Program-made: the position numbers and the translations under genes
Notes under the pieces: model-generated
Told to the model about the DNA's origin: nothing
Databases searched by the model: none
Seen by the model: only the letters and a program-made list of their open reading frames with translations
Shown here: piece by piece, positions 13,001 through 39,408 of the stretch
How positions within the stretch are numbered: position 1 is the stretch's first letter
Layout: the number at the start of each line of letters is the position of its first letter
Assembly: GCA_963731795.1 (NCBI GenBank)
Contig: CAVSWU010000003.1
Span: 1,158,216-1,222,215, forward strand
Length of the DNA: 64,000 nucleotides
Direction: 5' to 3'
Source of the DNA: an uncultured delta proteobacterium
GTDB lineage: Bacteria; Myxococcota; Myxococcia; Myxococcales; Myxococcaceae

Positions 13001-13096
13001 CGCCGCCCTCCTCCCAACCCAGCTTGTGGACCACAAGCAAGCTAGGTACCCACCCCTGAGGAGGGAAGTCCTCCCCAAGTGTCCGATTCAGCGCGA

Positions 13097-15863: not shown

Positions 15864-16121
15864 GGGCGGTGCCAGCCCGGGCCAGCGACTACCGCACAGT
15901 GGGGACGTTCCCGAGGCAGAGCCTGTGCCACCCCTGAAACAAACGGGCCCCTCCGTAGAAAAACTTTCCCGATCCGGGTCCCGTCATGCAGGAAACGCCG
16001 CAGCGTGCCTGGGAAGGCGTGTCGCCCTGCTGCCCAGACCGCCGCCAGGCAGGGGAGCGTCCCTGTCAAGCCCGCTTTCACTGGAGAAAGGCGCGATTTC
16101 CAGTTACGAACGCACCCCTCG

Positions 16122-17477: not shown

Positions 17478-17478
17478 C

Positions 17479-18254: not shown

Positions 18255-18442
18255 TGAGCTCGATGATGAGTCTGATGGTGCTGGCCCAGGCGGCCGCGGA
18301 CCCGGGTGTCCGCCGGGGGATCCAAGGCGGCTGGGGCTATGTGTGGACCAGCTACGGAATTACCTGGGGCGCGCTCGCGCTCTACTCGCTGTCGCTGTGG
18401 TTGCGGCGGCCCAAGAACTCGCCTGTTGGCCCGAAGGAGTGA
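18254..18442 (+). CDS. ccmD: heme exporter protein CcmD
   Basis: 62 aa [12 protein letters not shown]…WGYVWTSYGITWGALALY… single TM; TGATG overlap with ccmC. Confidence 0.6.
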   Translation: MSSMMSLMVLAQAAADPGVRRGIQGGWGYVWTSYGITWGALALYSLSLWLRRPKNSPVGPKE

Positions 18443-18445
18443 TCC

Positions 18446-18933
18446 ATGACGCCTGTCGTACGTAACCGCCTCATCGCCGTGGCAGCCCTCCTGGTGGCCG
18501 GTGCGGGCCTGGCCTTCGTGGCCTTCGGCAACATCGGCAACAACCTGGTCTACTACTGGAGCCCGGCGGAGATGATCAGCCAGGGCGAGAAGGCCTATGG
18601 CCCCACCATCCGCCTGGGCGGCGTGGTGAAGCCCGGCTCCATCCAGTGGAACGCCGAGCACACCAGCCTGAACTTCCAGGTCGCCACCGATCACAAGCCG
18701 GACGCGGTGGCCGTGACGGTGCACTCCACCGAGGTGCCGCCGGCCGATGTTCCGTGAGGGCATCGGCGTGGTGGTGGAGGGCACCTTCGACAAGTCCCAG
18801 GTGTTCAGCTCCAACCGGCTGATGGTGAACCACTCCAACGAGTACCGCGCGCCCAAGCCGGGCGAGAAGCCGCGCGAGTGGAAGGAGAGCCTCACCGACA
18901 GCTCCGCCACGCGCGACGACGAGGCCTCAGTGA
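18446..18933 (+). CDS. ccmE: heme chaperone CcmE; frameshift ~18750 and a second near the 3' end
   Basis: N-term TM + …VTVHSTEVP then MFREGIGVVVEGTF…LMVNHSNEYRAPKP (heme-binding His/Tyr region); no in-frame stop before ccmF, but GTGA overlap motif at 18930-18933. Confidence 0.65.
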
Positions 18934-20956
18934 ACGCGACGATTGGATATGGGCTCGTGCTCGGCGGGCTGGTGTGCGCCGCGTTCGGGGCCGTGATTGG
19001 CTTGACGAGCGGCCTGCGCCAGAGCGAGGCGGGCTCTCAGTGGGTGCGGCGCGCGGTGTGGGGCTTCTTCCTCTGCATGGCGGGCTCCAACCTGACCATG
19101 GTGTACGCGCTGGTCACCCACGACTTCAGCCTCGCGTACGTGGCCCAGGTGGGCAGCCGCGCCACGCCGCTGCTCTTCACAGATCGTGTCCCTGTGGAGC
19201 GCGCTGGAGGGGTCCATCCTCTTCTGGGGCCTCATCATGGGCACCTACCTGCTGGCCTTCTCGCTGGTGCACCGCAACGAGCACCGGCGCTACATGTCGC
19301 TGGCGCTGGGCACCATGCTGGGCGTGGGCGTCTTCTTCGCCTTCCTGATCGCCGGCCCGGCCAACCCCTGGCACGTGCTGGCGCAGGTGCCGCCGGACGG
19401 CCCGGGGCCCAACCCGCTGCTGCAGAACCACATCCTCATGGTCATCCACCCGCCCATGCTCTACCTGGGCTACGTGGGCATGACGGTGCCCTTCGGCATC
19501 GCGGTGGCGGGCCTGCTGCGCGGGGAGCTTGGCGACGCGTGGATGGCGCCGCTGCGGCGCTGGATCGCTCATCCCGTGGACGTTCCTCTCGGTGGGCATC
19601 ATCCTCGGCGCGTGGTGGGCGTACGCGGTGCTGGGCTGGGGCGGCTACTGGGCGTGGGATCCGGTGGAGAACGCCTCGTTCCTGCCGTGGCTGACGGCCA
19701 CCGCCTTCATGCACTCCACCCTGGTGCAGGAGCGCAAGCAGATGCTCAGGCTGTGGACCATGAGCCTGGCGCTGGCCAGCTTCGTGCTGACGATCCTCGG
19801 CACGTTCATGACGCGCTCGGGCATCTTCAACTCGGTGCACTCCTTCACCCAGTCGGACATCGGGCCCACGTTCCTGGTGTTCATCGCCTTCCTGCTGGTG
19901 TTCTCCATCGTGCTGCTGGCCACGCGCGGGCACCTGCTGGTGGCCAAGGGCCAGATCAACTCGTTCATCTCGCGTGAGACGAGCATCCTGGTGAACAACC
20001 TGGTGTTCGTGGCCATCACCTTCACGGTGCTGCTGGGCACGGTGTACCCGCTCGTCTCCGAGGCGGTGCGCGACGTGCGCGTCAGCGTGGGCGAGCCGTA
20101 CTTCAACAAGATGGCCGTGCCGGGCGGCATCGCCGTGCTCTTCCTCATGGGCGTGGGGCCGATGCTGCCGTGGGGCACGCCGAACAAGGACGCGCTGCGG
20201 CGGCAGTTCCTCTTCCCCGCCGCCGTGGGCCTGGTGGTGGCGGCGATCTGCTACGCGGTGGGGCTGCGCGGCTTCTACCCGCTGCTCACCTTCGGGATCG
20301 CCGGCTTCGTCACCATCGTCACCCTGCGCGAGCTGGCGGCGCCGATCCGCGTGCGCATGAGCGAGCGCAAGGAGAGCCTCGGCACGGCGCTCGTCCAGAG
20401 CGTGTCCAAGGCCCGCCGGCGCTTCGGCGGCTACGTGGTGCACCTGGGCATCATCTTCATCATCGTGGCGGTGGCGGCCTCGCACGCGTACGTGAAGCAC
20501 ACCTCCGGCACGATGAAGGTTGGCGAGGCGATCAAGCTGGACGGCTACACGCTCAAGTACCTGGGCCCGGCCGAGGGCAAGGAGCCCCACCGCACCTACG
20601 TGGCGGCGCGCATGGAGGTGACGACGCCTGGCGGCAAGGTGCAGGAGTTCCAGCCGCGGCTGAACTACTACGAGCGCAGCACGGACCCCGTCGGCACGCC
20701 CGCGGTGCGCGAGTCGCCGCAGGAAGATCTCTACATGTCGCTGATGGCCTTCTCCGAGCGGGGGACCACGGCGAGCCTCAACGTGTGGGTTTTCCCGCTG
20801 GTGGGGTGGATCTGGTACAGCATCCCCATCCTGGTGCTGGGCGCGCTGATCTCGCTGTGGCCGACGCGGCGGCGCGTGGCGGTGGGCGCGAGCGCTCCGG
20901 CCACGAGCGGTGCCCCGCCGGTGGCGGACAGTGACATGAACCGGGGTGCGGCATGA
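18930..20956 (+). CDS. ccmF: cytochrome c-type biogenesis protein CcmF; frame disruptions ~19190 and ~19565
   Basis: Three frame segments with CcmF signatures (…SLWSALEGSILFWGLIMG…, …GGYWAWDPVENASFLPWL…), ~670 aa total. Confidence 0.75.
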
Positions 20957-21609
20957 CGGGGGAAAACCTGGGCGCGCTCGCCTTCGTTGCAGTGCTGCTC
21001 CTCTCCCTGCTGACGGGCTTCTGGCGGAATCCGCGCGTGAAGCGGTGGAGAACCATTCTGAGAGTCCCACTGCTCGCGGTTGCCGTCTCCGCGGCGCTGC
21101 TCATCGTGATGCTGAAGGGCTTCGGGCGGGATCCGCACGAGGTGCCCTTCATGTTGGCCGGCAAGCCAGCCCCGCCCTTCACCTTGCGCGCGCTGAACAG
21201 CGGCAAGCCGGTGAGCCTGGAGCAGTTCAAGGGCCGCCCGGTGGTCATCAACTTCTGGGCTTCATGGTGCGGCCCCTGCCGGCAGGAGCACCCGGTGCTC
21301 GACTGGGGCGCGCGGGAGCTCGGCAATCAGGCGGTGTTCCTGGGCATCATCTTCGAGGACACCGAGGACAACGCGCGGGAGGTCCTCCAGGAGGAGGGCG
21401 CCAGCTTCCCGCAGCTGGTGGATCCGCGCTCGCGCATCTCGGTGGACTACGGCGTGTCGGGCGTGCCGGAGACGTACTTCATCGACGCCAACGGCATCAT
21501 CATGGGCAAGCACGTGGGCCCCATCGATCCGCAGACGCTGTCCACCCGCATCAAGGAGCTGAATGCCCGGACGGCCTCCACCGCGACAGGCTCGGCCCAG
21601 AACCCTTGA
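20953..21609 (+). CDS. ccmG: thiol:disulfide interchange protein CcmG/DsbE
   Basis: TM anchor, thioredoxin fold with WASWCGPCRQE active site; ATGA overlap with ccmF. Confidence 0.85.
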   Translation: MTGENLGALAFVAVLLLSLLTGFWRNPRVKRWRTILRVPLLAVAVSAALLIVMLKGFGRDPHEVPFMLAGKPAPPFTLRALNSGKPVSLEQFKGRPVVINFWASWCGPCRQEHPVLDWGARELGNQAVFLGIIFEDTEDNAREVLQEEGASFPQLVDPRSRISVDYGVSGVPETYFIDANGIIMGKHVGPIDPQTLSTRIKELNARTASTATGSAQNP

Positions 21610-21660
21610 GCCGTCAGGATCGCGCTCCCGGAGCTCGCACTGAGCGGAGGTAAGTGAGTC

Positions 21661-22831
21661 ATGCACCAGTGCACTGAGTGTGGCACGGTCGCCGCGGAGC
21701 CCCGCCTGAAGTACTGCGAGGAGTGCGGGGCGCGGATGCCCGAGTACAAGCCGCCTCCCCTGCCCCCCGAGGGCGGCCCGGGTGGAGCGGCGCTCGCGGA
21801 CTCCCGCCGCGCCACGCCCGCCTATACCGGCCCGAAGTGGCTGGCGCATGTCCCCGCGCACTCGCCCACCTCGCTGGGCGTCATCCTGCACGTGCTGGCC
21901 CTGTGGCTCTCCATCCTCCCCTTCCTCGCGGGCGTGGGGCCGTTCTGGTCCTTCGTGATGACGGTGGGCGGGGTGCTCATGATCGCCCGGGAGTACCGCA
22001 CCTCGAACCTGCCGAACCCGCTGGTGGACTGGATCCCCGAGTCGCTCCTGCCGAGCTTCCTGCCCGTCGTGTACTCGGCGCTGGCCGTGGCGATCGTGCT
22101 GCCGATGGTGGAGTTCAGCATCCAGCCGCTGCTGTGGGCGGGCGGCACGGTGCTGGTGGTGCGCGACCAGTGGGGCAAGGCCTTCACGGGCCCGGGTGGC
22201 TACGCGGAGATCTTCGATCCTCGCGCGGTGGTGCGCGGCCAGCGGCTGCTGGCGTTCGCGGGCATCGTCGTGTGCGTGCTGGCGCTCTTCTTCACGTGGA
22301 CGCTCGAGGGTGAGGTCACCGCCAGCGGGTACGCCTCGGCTGCCTCGGGGCAGCTGCGCTCCATCAACGTGCCGCAGCCGGGCGGCGACTCGATCTACGG
22401 CGGCGCGGGGGGGCTCCGGGTGTCAGGGTTCGAGCTGCCCGTGGGCTCCACCGTGGAGATCGGGCTGCTGGCGATCCTGATGCTGCTGATGCTGAAGCCC
22501 GAGGTGGAGCGCCCCGTGTGGCTGCGCTTCGTGCCCGCCGGGATCACGGTGATCTCCCTGGCCTGGGTGCTGGTGAACATGCGCATGAAGGTGGGGCCGA
22601 TCCTGTTCCTGGCGGGGCTCATCCCCGTGGGGCTCGTCTCGGTCCTCCAGGCGCTCGGCCGCGATGAGCATGCCCCCGGAGGACTACGCCCACGAGCCGC
22701 CTCCCGACGAGTCCTTCGCCCAGGACGCCGACCTGCCTCCGGAGGAGGACTTCCCGACCGAGAACGACCCGTTGCCGCCCGACGAGGCAGAGCATCCGCC
22801 TTCCGAGGATGATGAGGACATGCGCGGCTGA
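21661..22831 (+). CDS. zinc-ribbon polytopic membrane protein with acidic C-terminal tail (hypothetical); frameshift ~22665
   Basis: N-term CTECG…CEECG zinc ribbon, 6+ hydrophobic helices; last ~50 aa read in +1 frame give DYAHEPPPDESFAQDADLPPEEDFPTENDPLPPDEAEHPPSEDDEDMRG with much better GC3 than the annotated frame. Confidence 0.6.
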
Positions 22832-22957
22832 GGGCTTCCCCCGCTCCTGGCCCGCCACCCTGGCCAGGCAGGCAGGGGCTGGCTGGGAAGATGGCCCCTC
22901 CCGTAAAGGTTTCGCTGTGCAACACTGCGCCTTGGCGCTAGGTAGGCCTCGCCCGGG

Positions 22958-23479
22958 GTGCCCCGAATGACTTCTGCCCTCCTCTCTCTTGCTCTCGCCG
23001 CCGGTCTCGTGACCGGCCAGTTCGCTCCTCAGCAGGCCGGGAGCGATCCCCTCACCGATCCGGCCCTCGAGGCCCGCGTGCAGAAGCTCGGCAAGGAGCT
23101 GCGCTGCGCCGTGTGCCAGGGCGTCTCCATCGCCGACAGCCCGGCCTCCATGGCCCGTGCCCAGCTCGACAAGGTGCGCGAGCTCGTCGCCGCGGGGAAG
23201 TCCGATGAGGAGATCACCGACTACTTCGTGGCTCGCTACGGCGAGTGGGTGCTGCTGGAGCCCCCGAAGCATGACTGGAACCTGCTCGTGTGGCTGGGGC
23301 CTGTCGCCCTGATCGTGGGCGGAGCCTTCGTCATCTCGCGGCAGATCAAGCGGGGACCTGAGAGCGCCAACACGACTCCGGCCGCCAGCGCCACCCCGGC
23401 GGCCGCCGCACCCTCGGCGCCCGCGACCGAGGCCGAGGATCCCTACCTGAAGGCCGTTCGCCAGGAGCTGGAGCGATGA
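22958..23479 (+). CDS. ccmH: cytochrome c-type biogenesis protein CcmH/CycL
   Basis: Signal peptide, LRCAVCQG (LRCxxC) motif, C-terminal TM. Confidence 0.85.
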   Translation: MPRMTSALLSLALAAGLVTGQFAPQQAGSDPLTDPALEARVQKLGKELRCAVCQGVSIADSPASMARAQLDKVRELVAAGKSDEEITDYFVARYGEWVLLEPPKHDWNLLVWLGPVALIVGGAFVISRQIKRGPESANTTPAASATPAAAAPSAPATEAEDPYLKAVRQELER

Positions 23480-24468
23480 CGCAGCAGACCAACTGGTTGC
23501 CGGGGATCATTGCCCTCGCGATCGCCCTCGTCTGCGGGATCGGCTACCTGCTGCTCCAGCGGCGCACGGGCGCGGCGCCCTCCACCCCCGAGCCCCAGCG
23601 CGATGGCGTCCTGGACGATCTCGATCGGCGCGCGCAGTCACTCATCGAGCAGCTCAAGGAGCTGGTGGCGGACAAGCACAGCCTCTCCCCCGAGCAGTTC
23701 GAGGCGGAGAAGTCCCGGCTGGAGCGCGAGGCCGCGGCGGCGCTGCGGGCCAAGGACGAGTACCTGCAGCAGCGCAAGCCAGGGACGGCCAGCGCGCCGG
23801 GCTCGGCGGCCGCTCCCGTGGGACAGACGGCTCCCGCTCCGACGGGCTTCGCGGCTCGCAACCCGCAGCTGGTGGGCGCGATGTGGGGCGCGGGCGTGAT
23901 GCTGTTCTTCGGCGTCCTCGGCTACCTGCTCATGTCGTCGCTGCAGCCGCGCACCGAGGGCATGGAGGCCTCGGGCAAGGTTCCCCCGAACTCGTCTCCC
24001 ATGGGCCAGCAGCAGATGGGCCAGCAGCAGGAGGCTGTCCAGGAGGACGCGGAGTTCGCCCAGGCCAAGGAGCGGCTGCAAGCCAACCCGAATGATCTCG
24101 AGGCCGCCAGCTTCGTGGCGCATGAGATGATCCGGAACCGGGATCTCGAGGACGCGGAGAAGATCACGAACAAGGCGCTCGCGGTCGACCCGTTCCACAT
24201 CGAGTCTCGCGTGCACCTCGGAGTGCTGCACGCCCTCCGGGGAGATGTGCCGAGCGCCGAGCACGAGCTGCTGGAGCTGGCGGACACCTACCCGGGCGCG
24301 CAGGAGGCGCTGCTCTTCCTGGGCTTCATCAACCTGCAGTCCGGCCGGCGTGACAAGGCGCTGAACCTGTTCGAGCGCTTCACCGTGGAGGTGCCGCGCG
24401 ACCAGTACCCTCCCGGGATCGAAGCCGCCATTGCCCAGCTCCGCCAGGAGATGGGCCGGAAGCCCTGA
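23476..24468 (+). CDS. ccmI: cytochrome c biogenesis factor CcmI/CycH (TPR)
   Basis: N-terminal TM, second TM, C-terminal TPR repeats; ATGA overlap with ccmH. Confidence 0.75.
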   Translation: MTQQTNWLPGIIALAIALVCGIGYLLLQRRTGAAPSTPEPQRDGVLDDLDRRAQSLIEQLKELVADKHSLSPEQFEAEKSRLEREAAAALRAKDEYLQQRKPGTASAPGSAAAPVGQTAPAPTGFAARNPQLVGAMWGAGVMLFFGVLGYLLMSSLQPRTEGMEASGKVPPNSSPMGQQQMGQQQEAVQEDAEFAQAKERLQANPNDLEAASFVAHEMIRNRDLEDAEKITNKALAVDPFHIESRVHLGVLHALRGDVPSAEHELLELADTYPGAQEALLFLGFINLQSGRRDKALNLFERFTVEVPRDQYPPGIEAAIAQLRQEMGRKP

Positions 24469-24483: not shown

Positions 24484-25683
24484 TCACACGGAGGCCCGGC
24501 GCCTCCGTAACCGACGGATGAGCTCGACCGTGGTGTCAGGCAGGACGCGCTTGAGCACCTCGCGTGCGCCGCGCGCCAGCTCTTCGTGGCGAGTGAACCA
24601 GTGTCCCGCCCCCTGGGTGGAGTGGACGCGCACCGCCACCGTGCGCCGCTGCTTCGTCGTCCAGTCGGACTTGTAGGTCTCGGTGCCTCGGAGGAAGTCG
24701 TACTCAGTGAGGCCGGACTCGATGGCGTCCTTGAAGGTCTCGCCCACGAGCACCAGGCCCACGCTCCGGCTGCGCCACTGCGGATCGTAGCCGGACTGGA
24801 AGTAGATGAACGTGTCCCGGTGGAGAATCCCGTACACCGAGGCGACGGCCTGGCCTCCCACCTTCATCGTGTAGAGCCGCAGTCGGCCGCGCTCGGCCAG
24901 GAACTGCGTGGCATCGCGGTGGAAGGCCTCCACGCCCTTGCCCTTGATGCCCTGAGAGCCACCGTCCTCGGCCCAGCGGGCCGCGTGCAGCCGGAAGAAG
25001 TCCGTCATGGGCCCGGCGAGCGCCCCGGGGGCCTCCGTGCGCTCGATCCGATAGCCCTCCTGCTTCTCCAGCCACTTGCGGCGGCGCAGGTAGTTGTCCC
25101 GCCGGCCCGTGCGCTTGAGAAAGGCGTCGAAGGACTCTCCGGGCGAGAAGGTCTCGTACGGGCACACGCAGCGCTCCGTCACGCGGAACTCCATGTCCGG
25201 GAACATCTCGCGCAGCACCTCCACGGTGAGCGAGTCCTCGCGCAGATCCGTGAGCTCCAGCACGTCCCAGCCGCCGTGCATCTCGCGGAGCCCGTTCGCG
25301 AAGGCGCGCGTCACCGCCTCCTCCGAGCCCCGCCGCGCCACCACGTCCAGGTAGTCGCTGCCGACGTGCGTCTCTCCCAGGAAGGAGAGCCGTCCCACCT
25401 GGCAGCCCAAAACGTTGCGCAGCTCGAAGCCGAGCGGCATCAGGCCCACCAGGGTGCCGCTCCTATCTCTCGCCGTGAGGACCAGCGGCCGCCGGTCCGG
25501 AGCGATGCGGCGGCACCAAGGGTAGAGCCACTCCCAGGCGTTGAAGGGGCCGGCGTTGCTCGCGTCGAGCAGCGCGTCCCACTCGGAGCGCATGCGCGCC
25601 AGCGCGGAGAGCTCGTGGACGATCTCTACCTGGAGCCACTGCGAAGGCAGCGGCTCGGGCGTCACATCGGATTCACGGATCAT
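24484..25683 (-). CDS. GNAT-fold acyltransferase, CelD/BioF2/FemAB-like (ExoI-like)
   Basis: 399 aa; Acetyltransf_6-type C-terminal region; paralogous to 26877..27997. Confidence 0.7.
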   Translation of the reverse strand: MIRESDVTPEPLPSQWLQVEIVHELSALARMRSEWDALLDASNAGPFNAWEWLYPWCRRIAPDRRPLVLTARDRSGTLVGLMPLGFELRNVLGCQVGRLSFLGETHVGSDYLDVVARRGSEEAVTRAFANGLREMHGGWDVLELTDLREDSLTVEVLREMFPDMEFRVTERCVCPYETFSPGESFDAFLKRTGRRDNYLRRRKWLEKQEGYRIERTEAPGALAGPMTDFFRLHAARWAEDGGSQGIKGKGVEAFHRDATQFLAERGRLRLYTMKVGGQAVASVYGILHRDTFIYFQSGYDPQWRSRSVGLVLVGETFKDAIESGLTEYDFLRGTETYKSDWTTKQRRTVAVRVHSTQGAGHWFTRHEELARGAREVLKRVLPDTTVELIRRLRRRRASV

Positions 25684-25710
25684 GATCTACCGACTTTCAG
25701 AGAGAAGGAA

Positions 25711-26889
25711 TCAGCTCGCGCGCTTGCGTGAGCGGCGATCCATCTTCACGGCCTCGCGGACCGCGGCGGCCACCTTCGCCATCACCTCGGGGCTGAGATC
25801 CTGGTGGCAGGGGATCTCCACGATGGAGCGCCGCAGCTCCGCCACCTCGGGGAACTCCGCCGGATCGCATGCCGGGTGGAAGCGCCTCCAGAAGTCGATG
25901 GCGTCGATGCCGTGCTCGTGCAGCTTCGCCATCACCTCCGCCTTGTCCTGCACCACCAGCGGATAGAAGAGCGGGCACACGCCCGGCGGGAGCTGGTTGA
26001 ACAGCGGCGTTGACACATCGCGCAGCCGCCCAAGCAGGAAGAAGTAGTTCCGCCGCCGCTTCTCGACGATGCCCTCCAGATCCTGCGCCAGGGCGATGCG
26101 CTTCGTCAGCGGGCTCATGCCCAGGTCCACGTGCTCCCGGTTGAAGTGCTGCGTGCCGGTGGCCACGCGCTCGATGTTGGCGGCCTTCACCGTGCCATGG
26201 CCCAGCTCGCGGATGAGGCGGCGCAGCCCTCGGCCCATGACTCCGCCTCGGAGCTCCAGGTTCTGCAGCAGCGCGGAGATCGTGTGGCTGATCGTGGAGG
26301 CCTTCGGCGGCGCGGGCGGCTCCGGCAGGCTGTACTGCCGGGGGCCGTTGATGGCCAGCGCGCCCCCGTTGGGCACCGGCAGCGTCTTGTAGAGACAGAA
26401 GATGCCCACGTCACCCGTGGTCCCCAGCGGCACCGTACCGTCCGCGGACAGCAGCGACAGCGCGCAGTCCTCGATGAGCGGCAGCCCGTGGCGGTCCGCG
26501 ATCTGGCGCATCTCCGCCGCCGGGCCCGGGAAGCCCGCGTAGTGGATGAGGTAGAGGGCCTTGGTCTTCGGGCCGATCTTCTTCTCGACGTCCTCCAGGT
26601 CGACGTCCCAGCGCGAGCCCACCCGGTAGAAGCGCGGCGTGGCGCCCGCATCCACCACGGCCTCCACCTCCACGCCGTGGTGATAGGCCGGCATGAGCAC
26701 CTCGCCCTTGTCCAGCCCCAGCATCTTCACCGTGAGCCAGACGGCATTCCGAGCGAAGTAGAAGTAGCGCACGTTCGGCGCGCAGAACGGCGGGAAGGCG
26801 GCCGGCTGGGGCCGACGCCACAGCATGCTCGGCCAGAGCGTGGGCAGGGAGGGAACGAACAGCTTCTGGGTCGGGCTCACTTCTTCCAT
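25711..26889 (-). CDS. DegT/DnrJ/EryC1/StrS-family PLP-dependent sugar aminotransferase (ExoH-like)
   Basis: 392 aa from MEEVSPTQ…; …ALYLIHYAGFPGPAAEMRQIADRHGLPLIEDCA…IFCLYKTLP…; start overlaps upstream stop by 13 nt. Confidence 0.75.
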   Translation of the reverse strand: MEEVSPTQKLFVPSLPTLWPSMLWRRPQPAAFPPFCAPNVRYFYFARNAVWLTVKMLGLDKGEVLMPAYHHGVEVEAVVDAGATPRFYRVGSRWDVDLEDVEKKIGPKTKALYLIHYAGFPGPAAEMRQIADRHGLPLIEDCALSLLSADGTVPLGTTGDVGIFCLYKTLPVPNGGALAINGPRQYSLPEPPAPPKASTISHTISALLQNLELRGGVMGRGLRRLIRELGHGTVKAANIERVATGTQHFNREHVDLGMSPLTKRIALAQDLEGIVEKRRRNYFFLLGRLRDVSTPLFNQLPPGVCPLFYPLVVQDKAEVMAKLHEHGIDAIDFWRRFHPACDPAEFPEVAELRRSIVEIPCHQDLSPEVMAKVAAAVREAVKMDRRSRKRAS

Positions 26890-27997
26890 CGCGCCACCAC
26901 CTGTCTTGCCGTGGGGACCCACCGGAACTTCGCCGCGCCCAGCGCGCGCGCGAAGGCGGAGTCGTTGAAGAGGAAGAGCCAGTGGTGGCGCCGGACCTTG
27001 TCCGTCCAGTCGCGCTTCCACACCATGTCCGGCCCCAGGAAGTCGAACTCGCGCAGGCCGCGCGAGATGCAGTCCCCCAGCACCTCTTCCATCAGGAGCT
27101 GGCCCGGGCTGCACTCCTTGAGGCTCTCGTCGTAGCCGGGCTTGAGCAGGAAGTAGCGCTCGCCGTAGGTGAGGCCGTACTGGAAGGCCACCGGCGCGCC
27201 CATCCAGGCGCAGGTAGTAGAGCGACAGCCGCCCCGAGTACGCCGCCTCCCGCGCCAGCTCCGTGTAGAAGCCGCGCGTGCTCGCGTCCTGCGCCATCGC
27301 CGTGCCGCGCTCGCCCTTCCAGCCGCTCTGCTCGAGCGCGAAGCCCTCCTCCAGCTTGCCCTCCAGGTCCAGGCCGCCGTCCACCCGCTCGAACTCGACC
27401 TTGCCCTTCTCTTCCAGCTTCTTGCGCCGCCGCCGGCAGTTGGCCTTGAACTTGGACTGCAGCGTGGCCTGGTAGGCCTCGAGCGTGGCGGGCAGCGGCA
27501 CGTAGGGCGACTGGAGCGAGTCCCAGACTCCCGTGGACAGCCCCGCGCTCCTGGCCTCCTCGAGCAGGCTCCAGCCCGCGCCGCCCTCCGGCACGTCCGT
27601 CAGCCGCAGCACATCCCAGTCCCGGCTCATGCGCAGCCAGGCGAGGAACATCGCCGCGGCCGCCTCCGGCTCGCGGGCGATCAGATCGAACCGGCACGAG
27701 TGCGGATTGGCCGTGGCCGAGAGCTGCCGCACGGGGAGGCCGTACATCGTCGTGCGATCGGCCATCAGCGGCAGCGCCGCCGCCAAGCCGCCCCTCGGCG
27801 TCCCGCAGGGTGAGCACCCGCAGCCGCGCCGAGGGCGCGAAGTTGTCGATCCAGATGCGCAGGAACTCGTGGCGATAGAAGAGCTCGTTGGAGGTGGCCT
27901 CCACGAGCGCATTCCACTCGGGCTCGAGCGCCATGAACGCGGCCCGGTCCGTGACCTCCTGGACACTCGGCGCGGGCGTGATCTTTCTGGCTTCCAT
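26877..27997 (-). CDS. GNAT-fold CelD/FemAB-like acyltransferase (ExoG-like); two frame disruptions (~27760, ~27200)
   Basis: N-term MEARKITPAPSVQEVTDRAAFMALEPEWNALV… (ORF 27092..28048), middle in ORF 25711..28026 frame, C-term …FDFLGPDMVWKRDWTDK… in ORF 26877..27203. Confidence 0.65.
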
Positions 27998-28001
27998 GTG
28001 T

Positions 28002-29147
28002 TCAGGACTCCCGAAGGCGCGGACACCTCGGGTGCCGCGCGCGTGCAAGGTGGGAACGGCCGGGGCTGGCTACAAGCCAGCTGCGAGCCATCTTCAGCAG
28101 GCAGCGAGCAACCTTCCGGCTGTCGTGTCGGATCTTGGACCCCTCCCTGAGGAGATCCGCCTCCACGGGGACGACGCCAGCGGCGATCAGCTCGCGGCGG
28201 TTCACCGGGATGACAGAGGCGCCCTTGTGCGAATAACGCTGGATGGCCTCCGGCGGAGGAGGCTTTCCGTTGATGAGCACCGCATCCAGCACCGGGCCCG
28301 CGTGCTCGATGACTGCTCGGACGTGGTCCAGGCAGTCCATGCCGTCCGTCTCCCCAGGCTGGGTCATGAGGTTGGACACCATCACCTTGAGCACCCGCGT
28401 CTCGTTCAGCGCCTGGGCCACGCCATCCACCAGCAGGTTGGGGATGACGCTCGAGTACAGCGAGCCCGGCCCGATGACGATGAGGTCCGCGGTGTGGATG
28501 GCCTCCAGCACCCCCTCGGAGGGCGGCGGAGAGCGCGGGCTCAGCGACACCCGGCGCACGTGGCCCTGGGCGCGGACGATGTTGCGCTCGCCCACCACCT
28601 CGGTGGCGTCATCCATCTTCGCCACGAGCTGCACCGGGGCCAGCGTGCACGGCAGCACCCGCCCCCGCGCCCCCAGCATCTCCTCGGAGACGCGCACCGC
28701 CTCCAGGAAGTCCCCCTTGAGCTCCGCCAGCGCGGCGATCAGCAGGTTGCCCACCGCATGCCCGGCCAGCCCCTTGGCACCGCCGAAGCGGTACTGGAAC
28801 ACCTGCGCGAGCGTGCTGTGGCCGCCCGCGAGCGCCACCAGGCAGTTGCGGATGTCCCCCGGTGGCAGCACCCCGTGCGAGCGGCGCAGCCGGCCCGAGC
28901 TGCCTCCGTCATCGCTCATGGTGACAACGGCGGTGATGTCCACGCCGGGATCCCCCGCCTTGGGTTCAGCCCGCCGAGCCAGTCCTCGGAGCACCACCGG
29001 CAGCCCTGTGCCACCGCCCATCGCGACGATGCGAGTAGGGCGATCCACGTGCGGCTTCAGCAGCTCGTTCCGCCCCTGCTGCCGGGCGGTCTTCGCATCC
29101 TTGCCCCGCGTCTCCTGGAGAGACGAATCCAGATCCACGACCGACAT
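28002..29147 (-). CDS. YvcK/CofD-family gluconeogenesis-factor-like protein (ExoF-like)
   Basis: …RIVAMGGGTGLPVVLRGL…ITAVVTMSDDGGSSGRLRR…DIRNCLVALAG… UPF0052 signature. Confidence 0.8.
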   Translation of the reverse strand: MSVVDLDSSLQETRGKDAKTARQQGRNELLKPHVDRPTRIVAMGGGTGLPVVLRGLARRAEPKAGDPGVDITAVVTMSDDGGSSGRLRRSHGVLPPGDIRNCLVALAGGHSTLAQVFQYRFGGAKGLAGHAVGNLLIAALAELKGDFLEAVRVSEEMLGARGRVLPCTLAPVQLVAKMDDATEVVGERNIVRAQGHVRRVSLSPRSPPPSEGVLEAIHTADLIVIGPGSLYSSVIPNLLVDGVAQALNETRVLKVMVSNLMTQPGETDGMDCLDHVRAVIEHAGPVLDAVLINGKPPPPEAIQRYSHKGASVIPVNRRELIAAGVVPVEADLLREGSKIRHDSRKVARCLLKMARSWLVASPGRSHLARARHPRCPRLRES

Positions 29148-29181
29148 TGCCCAACCCCTTCCCGCCCACTCGCTGTGCCCG

Positions 29182-30585
29182 CTACCGCGCGCCACGCCCG
29201 AGCAGCACGTGCCGCACGGTGTGGAAGATGATCCCGATGTCCAGGAACAGCGACCCGTTCTTCACGTAGTACAGATCGAACTCCAGCTTGTTGCGCGCAT
29301 CCTCCACCGAGGCCCCGTAGGGGTAGCGGATCTGCGCCCACCCGGTGATGCCCGGCTTGACCGCCTCGCGCAGCCCGTAGAAGGGGATCTGCTGCTTGAG
29401 CTGCTCGACGAACACGGGGCGCTCCGGCCGAGGCCCCACGAAGCTCATGTCTCCCACCAGCACGTTGAACACCTGGGGGATCTCATCCATGCGCGTCTTG
29501 CGGATGAAGCGGCCCACACGGGTGATGCGGTCGTCATTGGCCCGGGCCCATACCGCGCCGTTCTTCTCCGCGTCCGTGCGCATGCTCCGGAACTTCCACA
29601 GCCAGTAGGGCTTGCCGCCCAGCCCCACGCGCTCCTGCCGGTAGAAGACAGGGCCCTTCGAGTCGAGCTTGATGACCAGCGCCACCACGACCAGGAGCGG
29701 CGCCGCCAACACCAGCAGCAGCGACGCGATGAGGATGTCGAATATCCGCTTGCAGGTCCGCCGCAGCCGCGACTGGGTCAGCTCGTCCGCGAAGGCGAAG
29801 TCGCTGGCGTGCAGGAACTGCACGGGGAGGCGGCGCAGCACGCGCTCGCAGAAGCCGGAGGCCTCATACACGAACCGCCCTTCGAGCCGGCAGCGCAGCA
29901 GCGCATCCACCCAGTTGGCGCCGCGCATGTCGTCCGCGGCCTGCACCACGTACTCGGCCTTCAGCTGCCGGGCCAGCTCGTCCAGCGGCCCCATCCCCTC
30001 GCGGCGAGGGTCCACCATGGCGACGACCTTGAAGCTGCCCTCGCCGCCCTCCTCGATGGCCTTCATCACGGCGCGCGCATTGACGCCATCTCCGACGAGG
30101 AGCACAGGCGAGGGCTGGCCGACCAGGGCATGAATGGCCACGCGCACCGCCAGTGTGCCGGCCAGGGCGCCCGTTGCGCCTCCCAGCAGCGCCCCGGGCG
30201 GCAGTCGCACCGGGAACACCAGCGCCACCGCGAGCATGCCCATGCCCACCAGCCCCGCGGTGACACCCGCCGCCTTGAGGAAACGGTAGCCGCGCTGGCG
30301 ATCATCGGCGGCCACGCGCAAATCGTAGAGATCCAGCAGATACAGGGTGAACTGAAAGGTGAAGACGAACGCCGCGCTCAGCGCCAGCAGCGTCGGCAGC
30401 AGCGTCATCAGCGGTGGGCGTGTCCCCGCGGGGGCGAACATCCACGCGCAGCCCGCGGCGCCCAGGACACATGCCAGCGCGATGGCCGTGCTCTCCGCGA
30501 GAAAGAACGTGAGCTTCCTGGCAGAAAAGTAGTGATGAAAAACCCGAAGCACGTGCACCCTCCAACCCACCCGCCACACGGACAT
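29182..30585 (-). CDS. polyprenyl-phosphate hexose-1-phosphate transferase (WbaP-like priming enzyme; ExoE-like)
   Basis: N-terminal TM helices, C-terminal bacterial sugar transferase domain …KRIFDILIASLLL…MSFVGPRPERPVF…. Confidence 0.85.
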   Translation of the reverse strand: MSVWRVGWRVHVLRVFHHYFSARKLTFFLAESTAIALACVLGAAGCAWMFAPAGTRPPLMTLLPTLLALSAAFVFTFQFTLYLLDLYDLRVAADDRQRGYRFLKAAGVTAGLVGMGMLAVALVFPVRLPPGALLGGATGALAGTLAVRVAIHALVGQPSPVLLVGDGVNARAVMKAIEEGGEGSFKVVAMVDPRREGMGPLDELARQLKAEYVVQAADDMRGANWVDALLRCRLEGRFVYEASGFCERVLRRLPVQFLHASDFAFADELTQSRLRRTCKRIFDILIASLLLVLAAPLLVVVALVIKLDSKGPVFYRQERVGLGGKPYWLWKFRSMRTDAEKNGAVWARANDDRITRVGRFIRKTRMDEIPQVFNVLVGDMSFVGPRPERPVFVEQLKQQIPFYGLREAVKPGITGWAQIRYPYGASVEDARNKLEFDLYYVKNGSLFLDIGIIFHTVRHVLLGRGAR

Positions 30586-30649
30586 CAGGCATCTCCCACC
30601 GCTCCCCCCGGGCAGCCAGGGAGCGGTGGGCGCCACCGGCCCTGCTCCC

Positions 30650-31393
30650 TCACCTCTTCACGTAGTTCTTCAGATACGGAGCGGTGTTCACCTCCGCTCC
30701 GTTCAGCACGCAGCCCAGGATGAGTGCGCCGCCGAGCTGCTCCACCGCCTGGTTGACCGCCCGGGTCGGCGTGACGTTCGCCCGGACCACCATGAGCACC
30801 CCGTCCGTCAAGTGGCTCAGGATGGTGGTATCCGCGAACGGCAGCGTGGGCGGCAGATCGATGTAGACCTCGTCGAAGTTGTCGCGTACCGCCTTGAGGA
30901 ACTGCTTCATCCGGCTGCTGGCCAGCACCTGCGTGGGCTCCTCCGGCGTGGCGCCGGCCGGGATGACGGCCAGGCGCGTCGCGTTGAAGCGGCGCACCAC
31001 GTCCCGGACATCGCACTCACCGGCCAGCAGCTCCGCCAGGCCCGTCTTGCCGCGGATGCCCAGCACCGAGCCCACCTGGCTGCGACGCAGGTCCGCGTCG
31101 ATCAGCAGGATGCGCCGCTCACTGTTGGCCCTGGCCGCGGCCAGCGCCAGGTTCACGGCCGTCACCGTCTTGCCCTCGCCCGGCAGGGCCGAGGTGAAGG
31201 CGATCACCTTCATCGGCTTCACCTCGCGCATCCGCTCCAGCCGGTAGTACAGCGTGCGGTACTGCTCCGCGGCGGCCGAGGCCGGGGCTGTCAGCGTCAC
31301 CACCCGGCGATCCACCGCGTTCGGGTTTCCCGCCGACTCGTCCACTCGAGGAAGGAAGTTGCCCGCCCGCTCCATCGTCCTATCCATTTCCAT
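30650..31393 (-). CDS. bacterial tyrosine (BY) kinase, cytoplasmic ATPase domain (ExoD/BtkA-like)
   Basis: Walker A ALPGEGKT, ILLIDADLRR, Walker B/DxD, ~247 aa, no TM. Confidence 0.8.
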   Translation of the reverse strand: MEMDRTMERAGNFLPRVDESAGNPNAVDRRVVTLTAPASAAAEQYRTLYYRLERMREVKPMKVIAFTSALPGEGKTVTAVNLALAAARANSERRILLIDADLRRSQVGSVLGIRGKTGLAELLAGECDVRDVVRRFNATRLAVIPAGATPEEPTQVLASSRMKQFLKAVRDNFDEVYIDLPPTLPFADTTILSHLTDGVLMVVRANVTPTRAVNQAVEQLGGALILGCVLNGAEVNTAPYLKNYVKR

Positions 31394-31417
31394 CTCCTCA
31401 GCTTCCTTTTCTCAGCC

Positions 31418-32827
31418 TCAGTTCAACGGGCCCGGGGAAGAAATCCCGTTCCGCGCCGACGAGGTGGGCATCAACACCCGCTTCTCCGTCTTCCCCTGCA
31501 TGTTCGGGACCACCGCCAGCACCGGCAGGGTGAGCCGTTGGCGCAGCTCGTGGCTGTCACGGATGCTGTCGTCCCGCATCTCGAGCATCACGCCGGTGAG
31601 CACGCCAGCGCCCAGGGCGATGAGGAACGAGATGAGCAGGCCCCCCAGGCGATCGGGCCGGGCTGGGATGGCGGGCACGCCCGCGGGAGAGATGACGTTG
31701 AAGAGGCTCTTGGAGCTCTTGGCCTCCAGCTCCTCGGCGATCTCGGCCTCCACCTTGCGAGACACCACGCTCTGGTACTTGGTCCGGGCGATCTCATAGT
31801 CCCGGTTCATCACGGACAGCTCCTGGGCCCAGCGCGGGGTGGTGTCCAGGCGCTTCTGGTACATCTCCGCCTTCTGCTGCAGCTGCTTGATGTCATTCTG
31901 GATGCCGGTGATCAGGTCAGCGACGCGGGCGCGCTCCTGGCGCTCGACCACCATGCGGCCCTCGGCGTCCTTGCGCTTGGCGGTCATGCCCTCCAGCTCG
32001 TTCTGCAGGCGCTTCACCTCGGGGTGATCCTCCGTCCAGGTGGTGCGCGCGGCGACGAGCTCACGGGTGAGCCCGTTCTCCGCGGCCTCCATACGGCCAG
32101 CCTCGGTGTCCGCGGCGTTGCGGGACCGGGCCAGCTCCGAGCGCCGAGCCTCGGCCGCGCGCAGCTCCTCGGACTTGGTCTGCATCTCATGGCCCACCAG
32201 CTCCAGCCCGCGCATGTTCATCTCGAGCTGCTCGGGTAGCTCGCCCATGTGGTCCACCTTGAACTGGGCAATGCGCTTCTCCCAGGCGGACACACTCTTG
32301 GACAGCGCGTCCATCTCCTCGGAGAAGAGCGAGGTGGCGCGCGCGGCCTGGGCCTGGCGCAGCTTGAGCGTCTCTTCCGCGAAGATGGCTGGCAGGCGGT
32401 TGGCCACCTTCGACGCCACCTCCGGATCGCGGTTCGCGTACGTCAGCTCGAAGGCGTTGTCCCCCTCCACCTTCACCGTGAGATCCTTGCGCATCTGATC
32501 GACCGCGGCCTCCATGCCCTGATCCGAGACGACGTCCGGATAGAGGTTCATCTCCTGGATGGCCTTCTCCAGCACCGGCCGCGCCATCAGCTCCTGACGC
32601 ACGGTGAGCAGGCGCTGCTCGATCAGCTCGCTCACGGTGTGCTGCACCATCTCCTCGTTGGGCCGCTGAGGCTCCACGCGGACCACCGAAGAGGCCTCGT
32701 ACATGCTCGGCCGGGTCATCACGACGGCCGCCCCCACCGCGAACACCGCTGCTGCGATGGCCCCTACCAGGGCCTTGCGGCGCCACAGGGCTACGAGCAC
32801 CTGGTCCGCCGTCATCCCACGCTCCAT
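31418..32827 (-). CDS. polysaccharide co-polymerase (PCP-2, Wzc N-terminal/GumC-like; ExoC-like)
   Basis: Two TM segments flanking long coiled-coil periplasmic domain; start MERGMTADQ. Confidence 0.8.
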   Translation of the reverse strand: MERGMTADQVLVALWRRKALVGAIAAAVFAVGAAVVMTRPSMYEASSVVRVEPQRPNEEMVQHTVSELIEQRLLTVRQELMARPVLEKAIQEMNLYPDVVSDQGMEAAVDQMRKDLTVKVEGDNAFELTYANRDPEVASKVANRLPAIFAEETLKLRQAQAARATSLFSEEMDALSKSVSAWEKRIAQFKVDHMGELPEQLEMNMRGLELVGHEMQTKSEELRAAEARRSELARSRNAADTEAGRMEAAENGLTRELVAARTTWTEDHPEVKRLQNELEGMTAKRKDAEGRMVVERQERARVADLITGIQNDIKQLQQKAEMYQKRLDTTPRWAQELSVMNRDYEIARTKYQSVVSRKVEAEIAEELEAKSSKSLFNVISPAGVPAIPARPDRLGGLLISFLIALGAGVLTGVMLEMRDDSIRDSHELRQRLTLPVLAVVPNMQGKTEKRVLMPTSSARNGISSPGPLN

Positions 32828-32853
32828 GTTCCGCTCCTCCTCCCTCAGGTGCA

Positions 32854-33996
32854 CTACCAAGCCGAGACCACCAACCGAACCGCAAGCACGTTGCGAGCCA
32901 GGTTCACCCCAGTCGCCACGTCCCCCGCGCCCACCTGGGCAATCCGATCCACGGCCCCCTGCAGCGACAGGTACCGGGTCAGCCGGTAATCCACGCTGCC
33001 TCCCACTGCATAGCCCTGCGACACATATGGCGACTCGTACAGCCGGAAGGCGCCCTCGTCCGGGGCGCGCCCGTTACGGAAGTAGCTGGCCGCCGCGTTC
33101 GCTGACAGCCGGTCATTGAAGCGCCGGGCCACCATCACCGAGGCGTAGTCCGCCCACAGCGCGTTGGTGAAGCCGCTGGCGCCCACCAGGTCATGCCCCG
33201 CGGCCACGGCCAGATCGAAGAGCGCCCCTTCCCGCTCCAGCCCCACCGCCACGCGCGGCAGCCACCCGGCCTGCCCCTCGGGCGAGGTGTAGAGGATGGG
33301 CCCGCCGCGCACGGTCAGCGTGGTGGGCCGGGACAGCCGGTAGCGCAGGCCCGCGAAGGCGCCCTGCGCGTGGGAGAACTCGTGCTCGAAGAGAAATCCC
33401 TGATAGCGGTATTCGAGCCCCAGGCTCAGCCGCCGAGTCTCCTGGTACCAGGCCTCGACGGAGGGAGTGTGGACGAAGCCGGGCGCACGGCCCTCCTCGT
33501 ACACCTTCGCGCCCTCGAACGCGTAGCTGGCCTTGAGATCGACGCGCTCGGTGGCGCGCCCCGTGACGGAGAGCATCACCAGCCCGTAGAGCGTGGGCGA
33601 AAGCGAGCGCGCCACTCCCTGGCGAGGCAGGGATGTGGGATCCGTCACGCGGAAGAGCTTGCCGGTGAAGTCCAGCTTGAGCCGCCGAGACAGCGCATAG
33701 CCCAGCTCCAGCCCGCTCCGGTGATCCAGCGTCGCGTTGCCCGAGCCATGCCGGACGAGCAGATCCGCCGCGTAGAAGGCCTCGCTCTTGGTGCGCGGGT
33801 CCTTCATCACCAGGCCCAACCGGGGCGACAGCTTGGTCATGAGCTGACCGCCCGCCCCCTCGGCGAGCCGGAAGTCGTCGTCATAGCGCTCCTCCGCGGT
33901 GATCCGCAGCGAAGAGTCCAGGACATGCCCCGCCAGCGCGGCCGGCCCGGCGAGCAGTACACACGCCACCAGGAGCTTCCTCACGCCACCCATCAT
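32854..33996 (-). CDS. outer-membrane beta-barrel protein (ExoB-like)
   Basis: Signal peptide MMGGVRKLLVACVLLAGPAALA, alternating amphipathic beta-strands, C-terminal …RLVVSAW. Confidence 0.65.
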   Translation of the reverse strand: MMGGVRKLLVACVLLAGPAALAGHVLDSSLRITAEERYDDDFRLAEGAGGQLMTKLSPRLGLVMKDPRTKSEAFYAADLLVRHGSGNATLDHRSGLELGYALSRRLKLDFTGKLFRVTDPTSLPRQGVARSLSPTLYGLVMLSVTGRATERVDLKASYAFEGAKVYEEGRAPGFVHTPSVEAWYQETRRLSLGLEYRYQGFLFEHEFSHAQGAFAGLRYRLSRPTTLTVRGGPILYTSPEGQAGWLPRVAVGLEREGALFDLAVAAGHDLVGASGFTNALWADYASVMVARRFNDRLSANAAASYFRNGRAPDEGAFRLYESPYVSQGYAVGGSVDYRLTRYLSLQGAVDRIAQVGAGDVATGVNLARNVLAVRLVVSAW

Positions 33997-34053
33997 CGCC
34001 GCCCTCCTCTCCCGCTTCCCTCACCCCTCCGCCCTCGGTCCCTCTCCCCCGCC

Positions 34054-34626
34054 TCACGGCACGACGATGGTGTCCCCCGGACGCAGCATGACGTCCTGAG
34101 TCCCATCCGGAGAGATCAGCTCCGTGTAGCGCACGGGGATCTTCCCGCCCTGGCCATCACTGCGGATGACGGTGATGCCGTCCGAGTCGGCGAAGTCCGT
34201 GAAGCCGCCCGCCAGCGCGATGGCCTGGACCAGCGAGACGCGCCCGCGCAGCGGATAGGCGCCCGGATGGGTCACCTCTCCGGTGACGAAGATGCGGCTG
34301 CTGTTCACCTCACGGACGATGACCGTGACGCGCGGCTCCTGGACGTACGCCTGCAGCCGCGTCTTGATCTCCTCGGCGAGCTCGGTGGGCGTCTTGCCCG
34401 ACGCCAGCACGTCGCCCGTCATTGGCATGGAGATGTAGCCATCCGGACGCACCGGCAAGGTCCTGGACAGATCCGGATCCCTCCACACCGCCACGTCCAG
34501 CACATCCTCGCGCCCGATGCGGTACGGCTGCTCCGAGTTATCCACCTTCATCGTCGGCGTGTGGGCACACCCCGCCAGGAGCAGCACGCCCACCACCCCC
34601 CAGAAACTCGCCCGCGTCTTGCCCAT
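34054..34626 (-). CDS. polysaccharide export protein, short Wza/OPX family lipoprotein (ExoA-like)
   Basis: Lipobox MGKTRASFWGVVGVLLLAGC; Poly_export + SLBB regions; only ~190 aa (no OM helix domain). Confidence 0.8.
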   Translation of the reverse strand: MGKTRASFWGVVGVLLLAGCAHTPTMKVDNSEQPYRIGREDVLDVAVWRDPDLSRTLPVRPDGYISMPMTGDVLASGKTPTELAEEIKTRLQAYVQEPRVTVIVREVNSSRIFVTGEVTHPGAYPLRGRVSLVQAIALAGGFTDFADSDGITVIRSDGQGGKIPVRYTELISPDGTQDVMLRPGDTIVVP

Positions 34627-34828
34627 TGTTCGCCTCTCCTCCATCCGTGTGTCCGCGGCCTGCTCCCCCGCACGACGAGCGGCTCGGAGCGAATGCCCCC
34701 GGCGGGCTTGCCGTAGCACCGGCCGTGCCACGCTTTCTCGGAGAGGAAACCCCATGGATCGCGGAGGCTTGCACGTTGCGCTGCGCGACGCTGCCTCCCA
34801 TCACTTTCCAAGGATCAGCACCCTGGGT

Positions 34829-34844
34829 GGGCAAAGATTTGCCC
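34829..34844. promoter_or_regulatory. 16-bp perfect palindrome GGGCAAAGATTTGCCC in divergent promoter region
   Basis: Read directly from sequence; lies between Wza-like start (34626, -) and small ORF/GDE (+). Confidence 0.3.
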
Positions 34845-35149: not shown

Positions 35150-35190
35150 TCCACACCGTTCCCACTCACTCTGACCGAGGAGAAGAAAGC

Positions 35191-39401: not shown

Positions 39402-39408
39402 GCGGCGG

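Follow-up and report, generated by a model that had tools for sequence, protein, structure and literature searches.

The exoA-I operon of Myxococcus xanthus (in which fdgA is exoA and btkA is exoD) is induced in sporulation and is required for the spore-coat polysaccharide and for resistant spores; insertions in most exoA-I, exoL-P and nfs genes of this species are depleted in spores. A published annotation of the cluster, based in part on fold recognition (PMC7310880 supplement), lists MXAN_3225 as WzaS (190 aa), MXAN_3227 as WzcS, MXAN_3228 as WzeS, MXAN_3229 as a WcaJ-like polyprenyl-phosphate hexose-1-phosphate transferase (PHPT), MXAN_3230 as 2-phospho-L-lactate transferase-like, MXAN_3231 and MXAN_3233 as FemABX-like/GNAT proteins and MXAN_3232 as a WecE-like aminotransferase, while MXAN_3226 is not recognised as a barrel in its fold-recognition table. 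MXAN_3234 and MXAN_3235, which follow, are given as NrfG and NrfF. Here we describe a 64-kb stretch of contig CAVSWU010000003.1 (hereafter the window; G+C ~69%), in which nine co-directional genes on the minus strand, running from 34626 to 24484, are candidates for the same operon. We are confident that this region is the orthologue of the M. xanthus exoA-I operon (the MASC pathway, WzaS/WzpS/WzcS/WzeS) in a Hyalangium-like myxobacterium, and that the breaks seen in its exoG and exoF genes are probably assembly errors. The nine genes, identified from open reading frames (ORFs) and from Pfam and NCBIfam matches, are as follows.

34054..34626, minus strand: exoA (wzaS), short outer membrane polysaccharide export (OPX) lipoprotein of 190 aa, Poly_export and SLBB only
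32854..33996, minus strand: exoB (wzpS), predicted 18-stranded outer membrane β-barrel porin of 380 aa, ending in ...SAW
31418..32827, minus strand: exoC (wzcS), 469 aa from the ATG at 32827, PCP-2B polysaccharide co-polymerase (PCP) with no kinase domain
30650..31393, minus strand: exoD (wzeS, btkA), stand-alone bacterial tyrosine kinase (BY-kinase) of 247 aa
29182..30636, minus strand: exoE, PHPT, the priming enzyme
28002..29195, minus strand: exoF, YvcK/CofD family, an ORF of 397 aa as read
26877..27997, minus strand: exoG, Acetyltransf_6 (FemABX-like GNAT), 376 aa when stitched from three frames
25711..26889, minus strand: exoH, DegT/WecE-type pyridoxal phosphate-dependent aminotransferase of 392 aa (PF01041 and WecE-like NCBIfam matches)
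24484..25683, minus strand: exoI, second Acetyltransf_6 (FemABX-like GNAT) of 399 aa (PF13480, 2e-33)

An earlier note on this DNA had placed nine genes in this order and on this strand between 24484 and 34626. Its coordinates are exact and its domain assignments agree with ours gene for gene; its seventh gene, exoG, had been taken as whole and is instead spread over three frames by two 1-nt insertions, and a defect at the 3′ end of exoF had also been overlooked. The gene-for-gene match to exoA-I that it proposed is borne out, since the order equals that of the published MXAN_3225–3233 list (PMC7310880 supplement). Intergenic distances within the cluster range from −14 to +57 nt and are therefore compatible with a single operon. 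exoB begins 57 nt downstream of exoA, compared to a spacing of 65 bp in M. xanthus (PMC9603273), and exoH overlaps the end of exoG by 13 nt. A scan of the operon for sigma-70 promoters and intrinsic terminators gave no signal exceeding chance.

The flanks also correspond. After exoI lie convergent genes for CcmI (an NrfG-like TPR protein) and CcmH (NrfF), as with MXAN_3234/3235. For the comparison of protein identities, the Myxococcus exo locus was represented by that of a complete Myxococcus virescens-group chromosome (CP183923.1, our locus L081), whose exoA-I products measure 190, 398, 475, 245, 455, 359, 372, 389 and 400 aa and are again followed by TPR and CcmH genes. The window proteins are identical to these at 76% (ExoA), 60% (ExoB), 79% (ExoC), 78% (ExoD), 76% (ExoE), 74% (ExoF), 73% (ExoG), 83% (ExoH) and 72% (ExoI) of positions. 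As ExoG against ExoI gives just 31% identity, compared to 72–73% for the two proteins with their L081 counterparts, each of the two GNATs is a positional orthologue. Upstream of exoA, genes for EVE, PheA, PDT, DAHP synthase and TPR proteins are common to the window and L081.

A scan with ExoF, taking one genome per species, returned 53 myxobacterial loci, the remaining matches being distant YvcK genes from unrelated phyla. The nine genes are collinear in every sufficiently long locus (~45 loci of Myxococcaceae/Archangiaceae), in the genera Myxococcus, Corallococcus, Pyxidicoccus, Citreicoccus, Hyalangium, Archangium, Cystobacter and Vitiosangium. Surveys of myxobacterial genomes have already recorded the exoA-I cluster (PMC7310880, PMC9601211, PMC9603273), and the system described here, judged by its sequence, is a further orthologue of a thoroughly described kind. 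Its importance beyond annotation is small: in M. xanthus, work on the operon has already explained how the polymer is exported (by a short OPX plus a porin) and how expression is regulated. The promoter deletion and the compact exoA-I/ccm/exoL-P layout (see below) are the sole features that are somewhat unexpected.

As a separate observation, the nine-gene block is not universally contiguous: in Archangium, Vitiosangium and related loci from metagenome-assembled genomes (L029, L030, L032, L035, L038, L039, L041, L043–L045 and L050), exoF and exoG are split by an insertion of ~1–8 kb.

The closest relative of the window is the locus of a metagenome-assembled Hyalangium sp. (L001), with 91–94% DNA identity over 19 kb and 88–94% protein identity. 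Proteins of H. versicolor are 76–91% identical, and ExoB of H. gracile is 79% identical. The host is not M. xanthus, a case that the earlier note had allowed for, and Hyalangium spp. are its nearest relatives. Members of Hyalangium have a G+C content of 68.5% and form sporangioles with spherical myxospores (PMC10959286). Sporulation, the absence of which the earlier note would have counted against its proposal, is therefore a property of the genus. The suggestion of a candidate developmental, spore-coat glycan pathway is supported by orthology, by the flanks and by the spore-forming genus, and it is not new. The spores of Hyalangium are packed in sporangioles, unlike those of Myxococcus, and the upstream regulatory region of the window differs (see below), so that an orthologous cluster might have shifted its role in Hyalangium, for example to a sporangiole wall or slime glycan instead of the coat of the individual myxospore. 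We consider such a shift very improbable. The cluster, its flanks, its sigma-54 promoter and exoL-P are conserved across genera that differ in fruiting-body architecture, which argues for one conserved function, and we found no positive evidence for a change of role.

Export components and the EPS and BPS pathways

ExoA matches PF02563, PF10531 and PF22461 only, and its N-terminus, MGKTRASFWGVVGVLLLAGC, contains an LAGC lipobox. Its length equals that published for ExoA (190 aa) and lies within the size range used to define short OPX proteins, 280 aa or less (PMC9601211). ExoA therefore combines all the features of the OPX component of a composite translocon: short length, Poly_export and SLBB domains as its only domains, a lipoprotein signal and no outer membrane-spanning Wza_C helix.

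ExoB has no family match in Pfam or NCBIfam, and a profile built from 15 orthologues gave no match among PDB sequences. As this was the sole assignment without database support, the protein was modelled. AlphaFold run on the single sequence yielded no usable model (pLDDT 31). With a multiple sequence alignment of 53 sequences, AlphaFold2 returned a model with pLDDT 86.7 and pTM 0.78, consisting of a signal helix followed by 18 β-strands. The best Foldseek matches of this model in the PDB are the 18-strand barrels OccD2/OpdL (OccD/OccK) and AlgE (E ~1e-9, TMq ≤0.53). As modelled, ExoB is an 18-strand outer membrane barrel, with the fold published for ExoB/WzpS of M. xanthus, which has been described as an 18-strand barrel resembling AlgE (PMC9601211, PMC9603273).

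ExoC matches Pfam Wzz and the NCBIfam chain-length-determinant models, with transmembrane segments at residues 19–37 and 397–415. The protein terminates beyond the second of these segments, and the kinase is encoded by a separate gene, exoD. ExoD matches AAA_31 and the tyrosine autokinase model TIGR01007 (136 bits, cutoff 108), and carries the motifs GEGKT, ILLIDAD and YIDLPP (P-loop, Walker A/A′/B); its C-terminal tail contains only two tyrosines, a weak version of the tyrosine cluster. ExoE matches Bac_transf (5e-69) and TIGR03025 (397 bits, cutoff 296) and has four transmembrane-like segments. The start of exoE is uncertain, the ORF being 484 aa in the window compared to 455 aa in Myxococcus. 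ExoF matches PF01933 (9e-99) and the YvcK subfamily model TIGR01826 (335 bits, cutoff 196); the NCBI name for it is “UDP-GlcNAc-binding protein”.

Wzx/Wzy logic and OPX-plus-barrel export are also found in the exopolysaccharide (EPS; EpsY/EpsX/EpsV/EpsW/EpsZ) and biosurfactant polysaccharide (BPS; WzaB/WzpB/WzcB) pathways of M. xanthus. A short OPX, an 18-strand barrel, a PCP, a BY-kinase and a PHPT are common to all three M. xanthus pathways; the EPS pathway, like the window, combines a PCP-2B with a separate kinase, and the second-best NCBIfam match of ExoA is the EpsY model. The cluster might on these grounds be a paralogous pathway of the EPS or BPS type, or a locus for a vegetative capsule with no more than a resemblance to exoA-I. 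We attach next to no probability to this reading. The score of ExoA against the EpsY equivalog NF041843 (131 bits) is below the cutoff of 320, and that of ExoE against the EpsZ equivalog NF041877 (149 bits) is below the cutoff of 800, which disfavours a paralogue. The BPS protein WzcB is a PCP-2A with a fused C-terminal BY-kinase domain (PMC7310880), whereas the kinase in the window is separate. MXAN_3230–3235 have the same YvcK–GNAT–DegT–GNAT tail and ccmI/ccmH flank, identities to the Myxococcus exo-locus proteins are 72–83% (60% for the barrel), and no complete genome is represented more than once among the loci returned by the ExoF scan. We know of no YvcK–GNAT–DegT–GNAT block or ccm flank in the EPS and BPS clusters, in part from published annotation. 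Paralogy to Eps or BPS was thus rejected on the equivalog scores and the unfused PCP, and best matches to Eps or BPS proteins, the outcome that the earlier note had named as speaking against its proposal, were not obtained for the 64-kb window, the identities to Exo proteins being 60–83%. The preferred reading remains orthology to exoA-I.

Two further systems serve for comparison. The composite translocon of a D1D2-type OPX and an 18-strand barrel (Schwabe et al. 2022, PMC9601211; “Class 3 OPX + Wzp” in Saidi et al. 2022, PMC9603273) has the same short lipoprotein OPX beside an AlgE-like barrel, and ExoA and ExoB of the window, with nothing distinctive about them, are a plain orthologue pair. 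The group 1 capsule system of Escherichia coli, Wza–Wzb–Wzc, shares the OPX, PCP and BY-kinase functions and is Wzx/Wzy-dependent. However, E. coli Wza is ~2× as long and spans the outer membrane with a C-terminal helix barrel (PMC9603273), whereas the short ExoA of the window would need an additional porin. Moreover, E. coli Wzc is a fused PCP–kinase, whereas the window operon has a separate kinase and no gene for a Wzb phosphatase.

Promoter and upstream region

The sequence upstream of exoA contains the following features.

34716..34731, minus strand: sigma-54-type −24/−12 element TGGCACggccgGTGCT, which precedes the exoA ATG by 104 nt
34795..34796: point at which 41 bp are deleted in the window alone, with loss of the proximal GGAA-W3-4-TTCC palindrome (from the blastn indel list and the upstream alignment)
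34829..34844: distal-type palindrome GGGCAAATCTTTGCCC, still present but moved from ~−154 to −113 relative to the −24 element by the 41-bp deletion

The exoA element has one mismatch to TGGCAC-N5-TTGC. Each of the 42 related loci has a TGGCAC-N5-NTGCT sequence 64–110 nt ahead of exoA (43/43 with the window included). Since the count of sigma-54-like matches over the whole window is not above chance, the element carries weight only through its position and its conservation. It agrees with what is known in M. xanthus, where the enhancer-binding protein Nla6 activates exoA-I directly. Two sigma-54-like elements are also located upstream of exoL, at 15930–15916 and 15874–15860.

A second conserved element, the palindrome GGAA-W3-4-TTCC, lies 86–91 nt upstream of the −24 element in 36 of the 42 relatives (for example in the region 4290–4330 of L001 and at 9233–9244 of L081), and the other 6 have a degenerate copy in the same place. 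The strict palindrome occurs once per 21-kb locus in the relatives and not once in the 64-kb window, where the deletion has removed it. Published electrophoretic mobility shift assays used a fragment from −171 to −1; the Myxococcus palindrome, at positions −181 to −170 relative to the start codon, would fall just beyond that fragment. A sigma-54 promoter combined with a palindrome at a strictly kept position, both conserved over at least 8 genera, offers a target for studies of sporulation control by Nla6 and FruA.

Reading frames and the companion operons

Frameshifts were placed by homologue-guided mapping. In a three-frame read-out, the N-terminal, middle and C-terminal thirds of exoG each lie in a different reading frame, and alignment to three Hyalangium relatives (L001, L002 and L004) reveals exactly two additional bases, one near 27785 (27785–27787) and one at 27196. 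The stitched ExoG aligns over 100% of its length in a single high-scoring segment pair in ~40 relatives, has no internal stop and is 91% identical to its nearest orthologue. In exoF, comparison with L001, L004 and L033 shows one extra nucleotide at 28079, three codons ahead of the stop, which creates a false tail of 24 aa; the conserved end of ExoF is ...KMAR[S/C]GL followed by the stop, here the TAG at 28071–28073.

As a by-product of the frame changes, the middle of exoG is fused in frame with exoH in a spurious ORF of 771 aa (25711–28026). This ORF was considered as a genuine GNAT–aminotransferase fusion and rejected as a frame artefact of the two exoG insertions.

Breaks of this type extend well beyond exoG and exoF. 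A second operon of the spore-coat type, exoL-P-like, occupies 10165–15830 on the minus strand, with a ccm operon alone between it and exoA-I. The genes of these two operons, and the other frame-broken genes, are listed here.

14629..15830 (approximate), minus strand: exoL-like polysaccharide deacetylase in several frames, with Polysacc_deac_1 positions 4–46 and 47–98 on two ORF pieces
13100..14650 (approximate), minus strand: exoM-like Wzx flippase, with two frameshifts at ~14497 and ~13900 (tblastn frames −1, −2, −1)
12491..13087, minus strand: exoN-like hexapeptide O-acetyltransferase (Pfam Hexapep)
11414–12487, minus strand: exoO-like glycosyltransferase (Glyco_transf_4/Glycos_transf_1)
10165–11478, minus strand: exoP-like glycosyltransferase (Glyco_transf_4/Glycos_transf_1)
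15858..24468, plus strand: ccmABC(D)EFG-x-HI cytochrome c maturation operon, converging on exoI and diverging from exoL, with several genes frameshifted
16409–17474: ccmB, frame-broken
47238–48900: sigma-54 activator, frame-broken
55423–57478: DsbA-like gene, frame-broken
58041–60690: relA/spoT, frame-broken

At least 17 frame-breaking events occur across the window, and those mapped against relatives are 1-nt insertions, none of them in a homopolymer. Compared to L001 and L004, uncompensated 1-nt insertions are found once in ccmE and three times in ccmF (positions 18746, 18912, 19180 and 19567). Pfam domains are divided between frames in ccmB, relA/spoT (inside the TGS domain), the sigma-54 activator (three frames), the DsbA-like gene, the polysaccharide deacetylase and the Wzx flippase. 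The load is six insertions in the 8.5-kb ccm operon compared to three in the 10-kb exo operon. As the same type of insertion hits housekeeping genes, and joint loss of cytochrome c maturation and RelA is implausible in an aerobic myxobacterium, the breaks in exoG and at the 3′ end of exoF are most probably assembly errors, of the kind expected from unpolished long reads, and not biology.

The alternative is that the locus is genuinely decaying, with exoG a pseudogene, exoF, exoL and exoM damaged and the palindrome lost, so that the organism, a natural or laboratory strain deficient in sporulation, would have an altered spore coat or lack one altogether. The two exoG frameshifts, the single one in exoF and those in exoM and exoL would fit such decay, as would a deletion, found in the window only, of an element whose position is otherwise conserved in 42/42 relatives. 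We nevertheless regard decay as distinctly unlikely. The same 1-nt insertions occur at similar or higher density in ccmB/E/F, relA/spoT, the gene for the enhancer-binding protein and the DsbA-like gene, and the stitched ExoG, free of internal stops and close to its nearest orthologue, gives no sign of relaxed selection. Damage of narrower extent is unlikely too, whether the loss of the palindrome and the frameshifts in exoG, exoM and exoL are all real or, in a milder form, the 41-bp deletion alone is real and shifts the timing at which the coat operon is switched on. If true, it would be a natural case in which the myxospore-coat regulon has decayed or been rewired.

We therefore retain an intact exoA-I orthologue interrupted by probable assembly errors as the preferred reading, and several points weigh against it. 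In the sequence as it stands, none of exoG, exoM and exoL is a single ORF and, read literally, the pathway is broken. The 41-bp deletion differs in type from the errors in the rest of the window, and regulation may truly change. The comparison with Eps and BPS paralogues was limited to the 64-kb window. The Hyalangium-like affinity of the host is drawn from sequence similarity. Finally, to our knowledge, the roles of ExoF, ExoG, ExoH and ExoI have not been established biochemically even in M. xanthus. For the annotation of the source genome, frameshift artefacts are to be expected about once per 3–4 kb, and pseudogene calls (exoG, ccmF, relA) are unsafe when made from the assembly alone.

The exoL-P-like operon follows the published order of exoL-P (MXAN_3259–3263): MXAN_3259 is a polysaccharide N-deacetylase, MXAN_3260 is WzxS/ExoM, MXAN_3261 is a WcaF-like O-acetyltransferase, and MXAN_3262 and MXAN_3263 are glycosyltransferases, matched in the window by a deacetylase, a flippase, an acetyltransferase and two glycosyltransferases. 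Homologues of the exoM-like protein bear the names oligosaccharide flippase or O-antigen export protein and match PF13440/PF01943. In the exoL-like gene, the two Polysacc_deac_1 halves are in the same frame with a stop codon between them at 15284–15286, which could be an in-frame stop or the result of two compensating indels; a GC3-based frame plot was too noisy to give exact sites in this gene. The intervening ccm operon matches ABC_tran, CcmB, Cytochrom_C_asm, CcmE, CcmF_C, Redoxin, CcmH and TPR_CcmH_CycH.

In M. xanthus, MXAN_3252–3258 encode CcmG, F, E, D, C and B and an ABC protein, ahead of exoL-P. The window region 10165–34626 has the MXAN_3225–3263 layout minus a block of 16 genes, MXAN_3236–3251, which divides the ccm operon of M. 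xanthus. Because this block is not present, exoL-P lies just 8.5 kb from exoA-I. Insertions have been proposed to have broken up the cluster in M. xanthus (PMC7310880), and the uninterrupted exoA-I/ccm/exoL-P layout of the window supports an insertion origin of that arrangement. exoJ, exoK and nfs are absent from the 64-kb window; in M. xanthus they are also located elsewhere.

Proposed pathway and neighbouring genes

The window and its models directly show which genes are present and in what order, their orthology, the fold of the barrel, the promoter element and the frameshifts; the biochemical steps and the developmental role that follow are carried over by orthology, and each should be understood as a prediction. 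Transcription would start from the conserved sigma-54 promoter and would need an enhancer-binding protein, Nla6 in M. xanthus. ExoE would prime undecaprenyl phosphate with a hexose-1-phosphate, and the repeat unit would be extended by ExoO and ExoP, whose genes lie in the window at a distance of 8.5 kb, together with ExoK, encoded elsewhere. The flippase ExoM, also in the window, would carry the repeat unit to the periplasmic face. There, the Wzy polymerase ExoJ, encoded outside the window, would polymerise it with the PCP-2B ExoC, whose activity would be set by the tyrosine kinase ExoD. The polymer would then exit through a composite translocon, in which a ring of the periplasmic D1D2-type OPX lipoprotein ExoA is docked beneath the ExoB barrel. 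ExoF, ExoH and ExoG/ExoI would supply or modify sugar precursors, and probably make or decorate an amino sugar, possibly with glycine or an N-acyl group. The M. xanthus spore coat is reportedly a polymer of GalNAc with glycine, and a glycyl- or acyl-transfer role for ExoG/ExoI would be plausible on that basis.

Compared to M. xanthus exoA-I, the locus is alike in its nine genes, their order and strand, near-identical product sizes, flanks and the sigma-54-type element. It differs in belonging to a Hyalangium-like genus, in the broken exoG and exoF end, in the 41-bp upstream deletion and in the insertion of a glycogen-debranching gene and an amino-acid permease gene upstream.

The glycogen-debranching gene (GDE_N/GDE_C; 34924–37227, plus strand) lies directly upstream of exoA and is divergent from it, and the amino-acid permease gene (37749–39398, plus strand) lies farther upstream. 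Neither is at that position in L081; the glycogen-debranching gene is found there in Hyalangium, Corallococcus and some other loci. Still farther from exoA, two adjoining prephenate dehydratase genes span 39253–42004, one of them fused to chorismate mutase, with a DAHP synthase gene nearby at 45300–46421. The same prephenate dehydratase/DAHP synthase arrangement is located upstream of exoA in Myxococcus L081.

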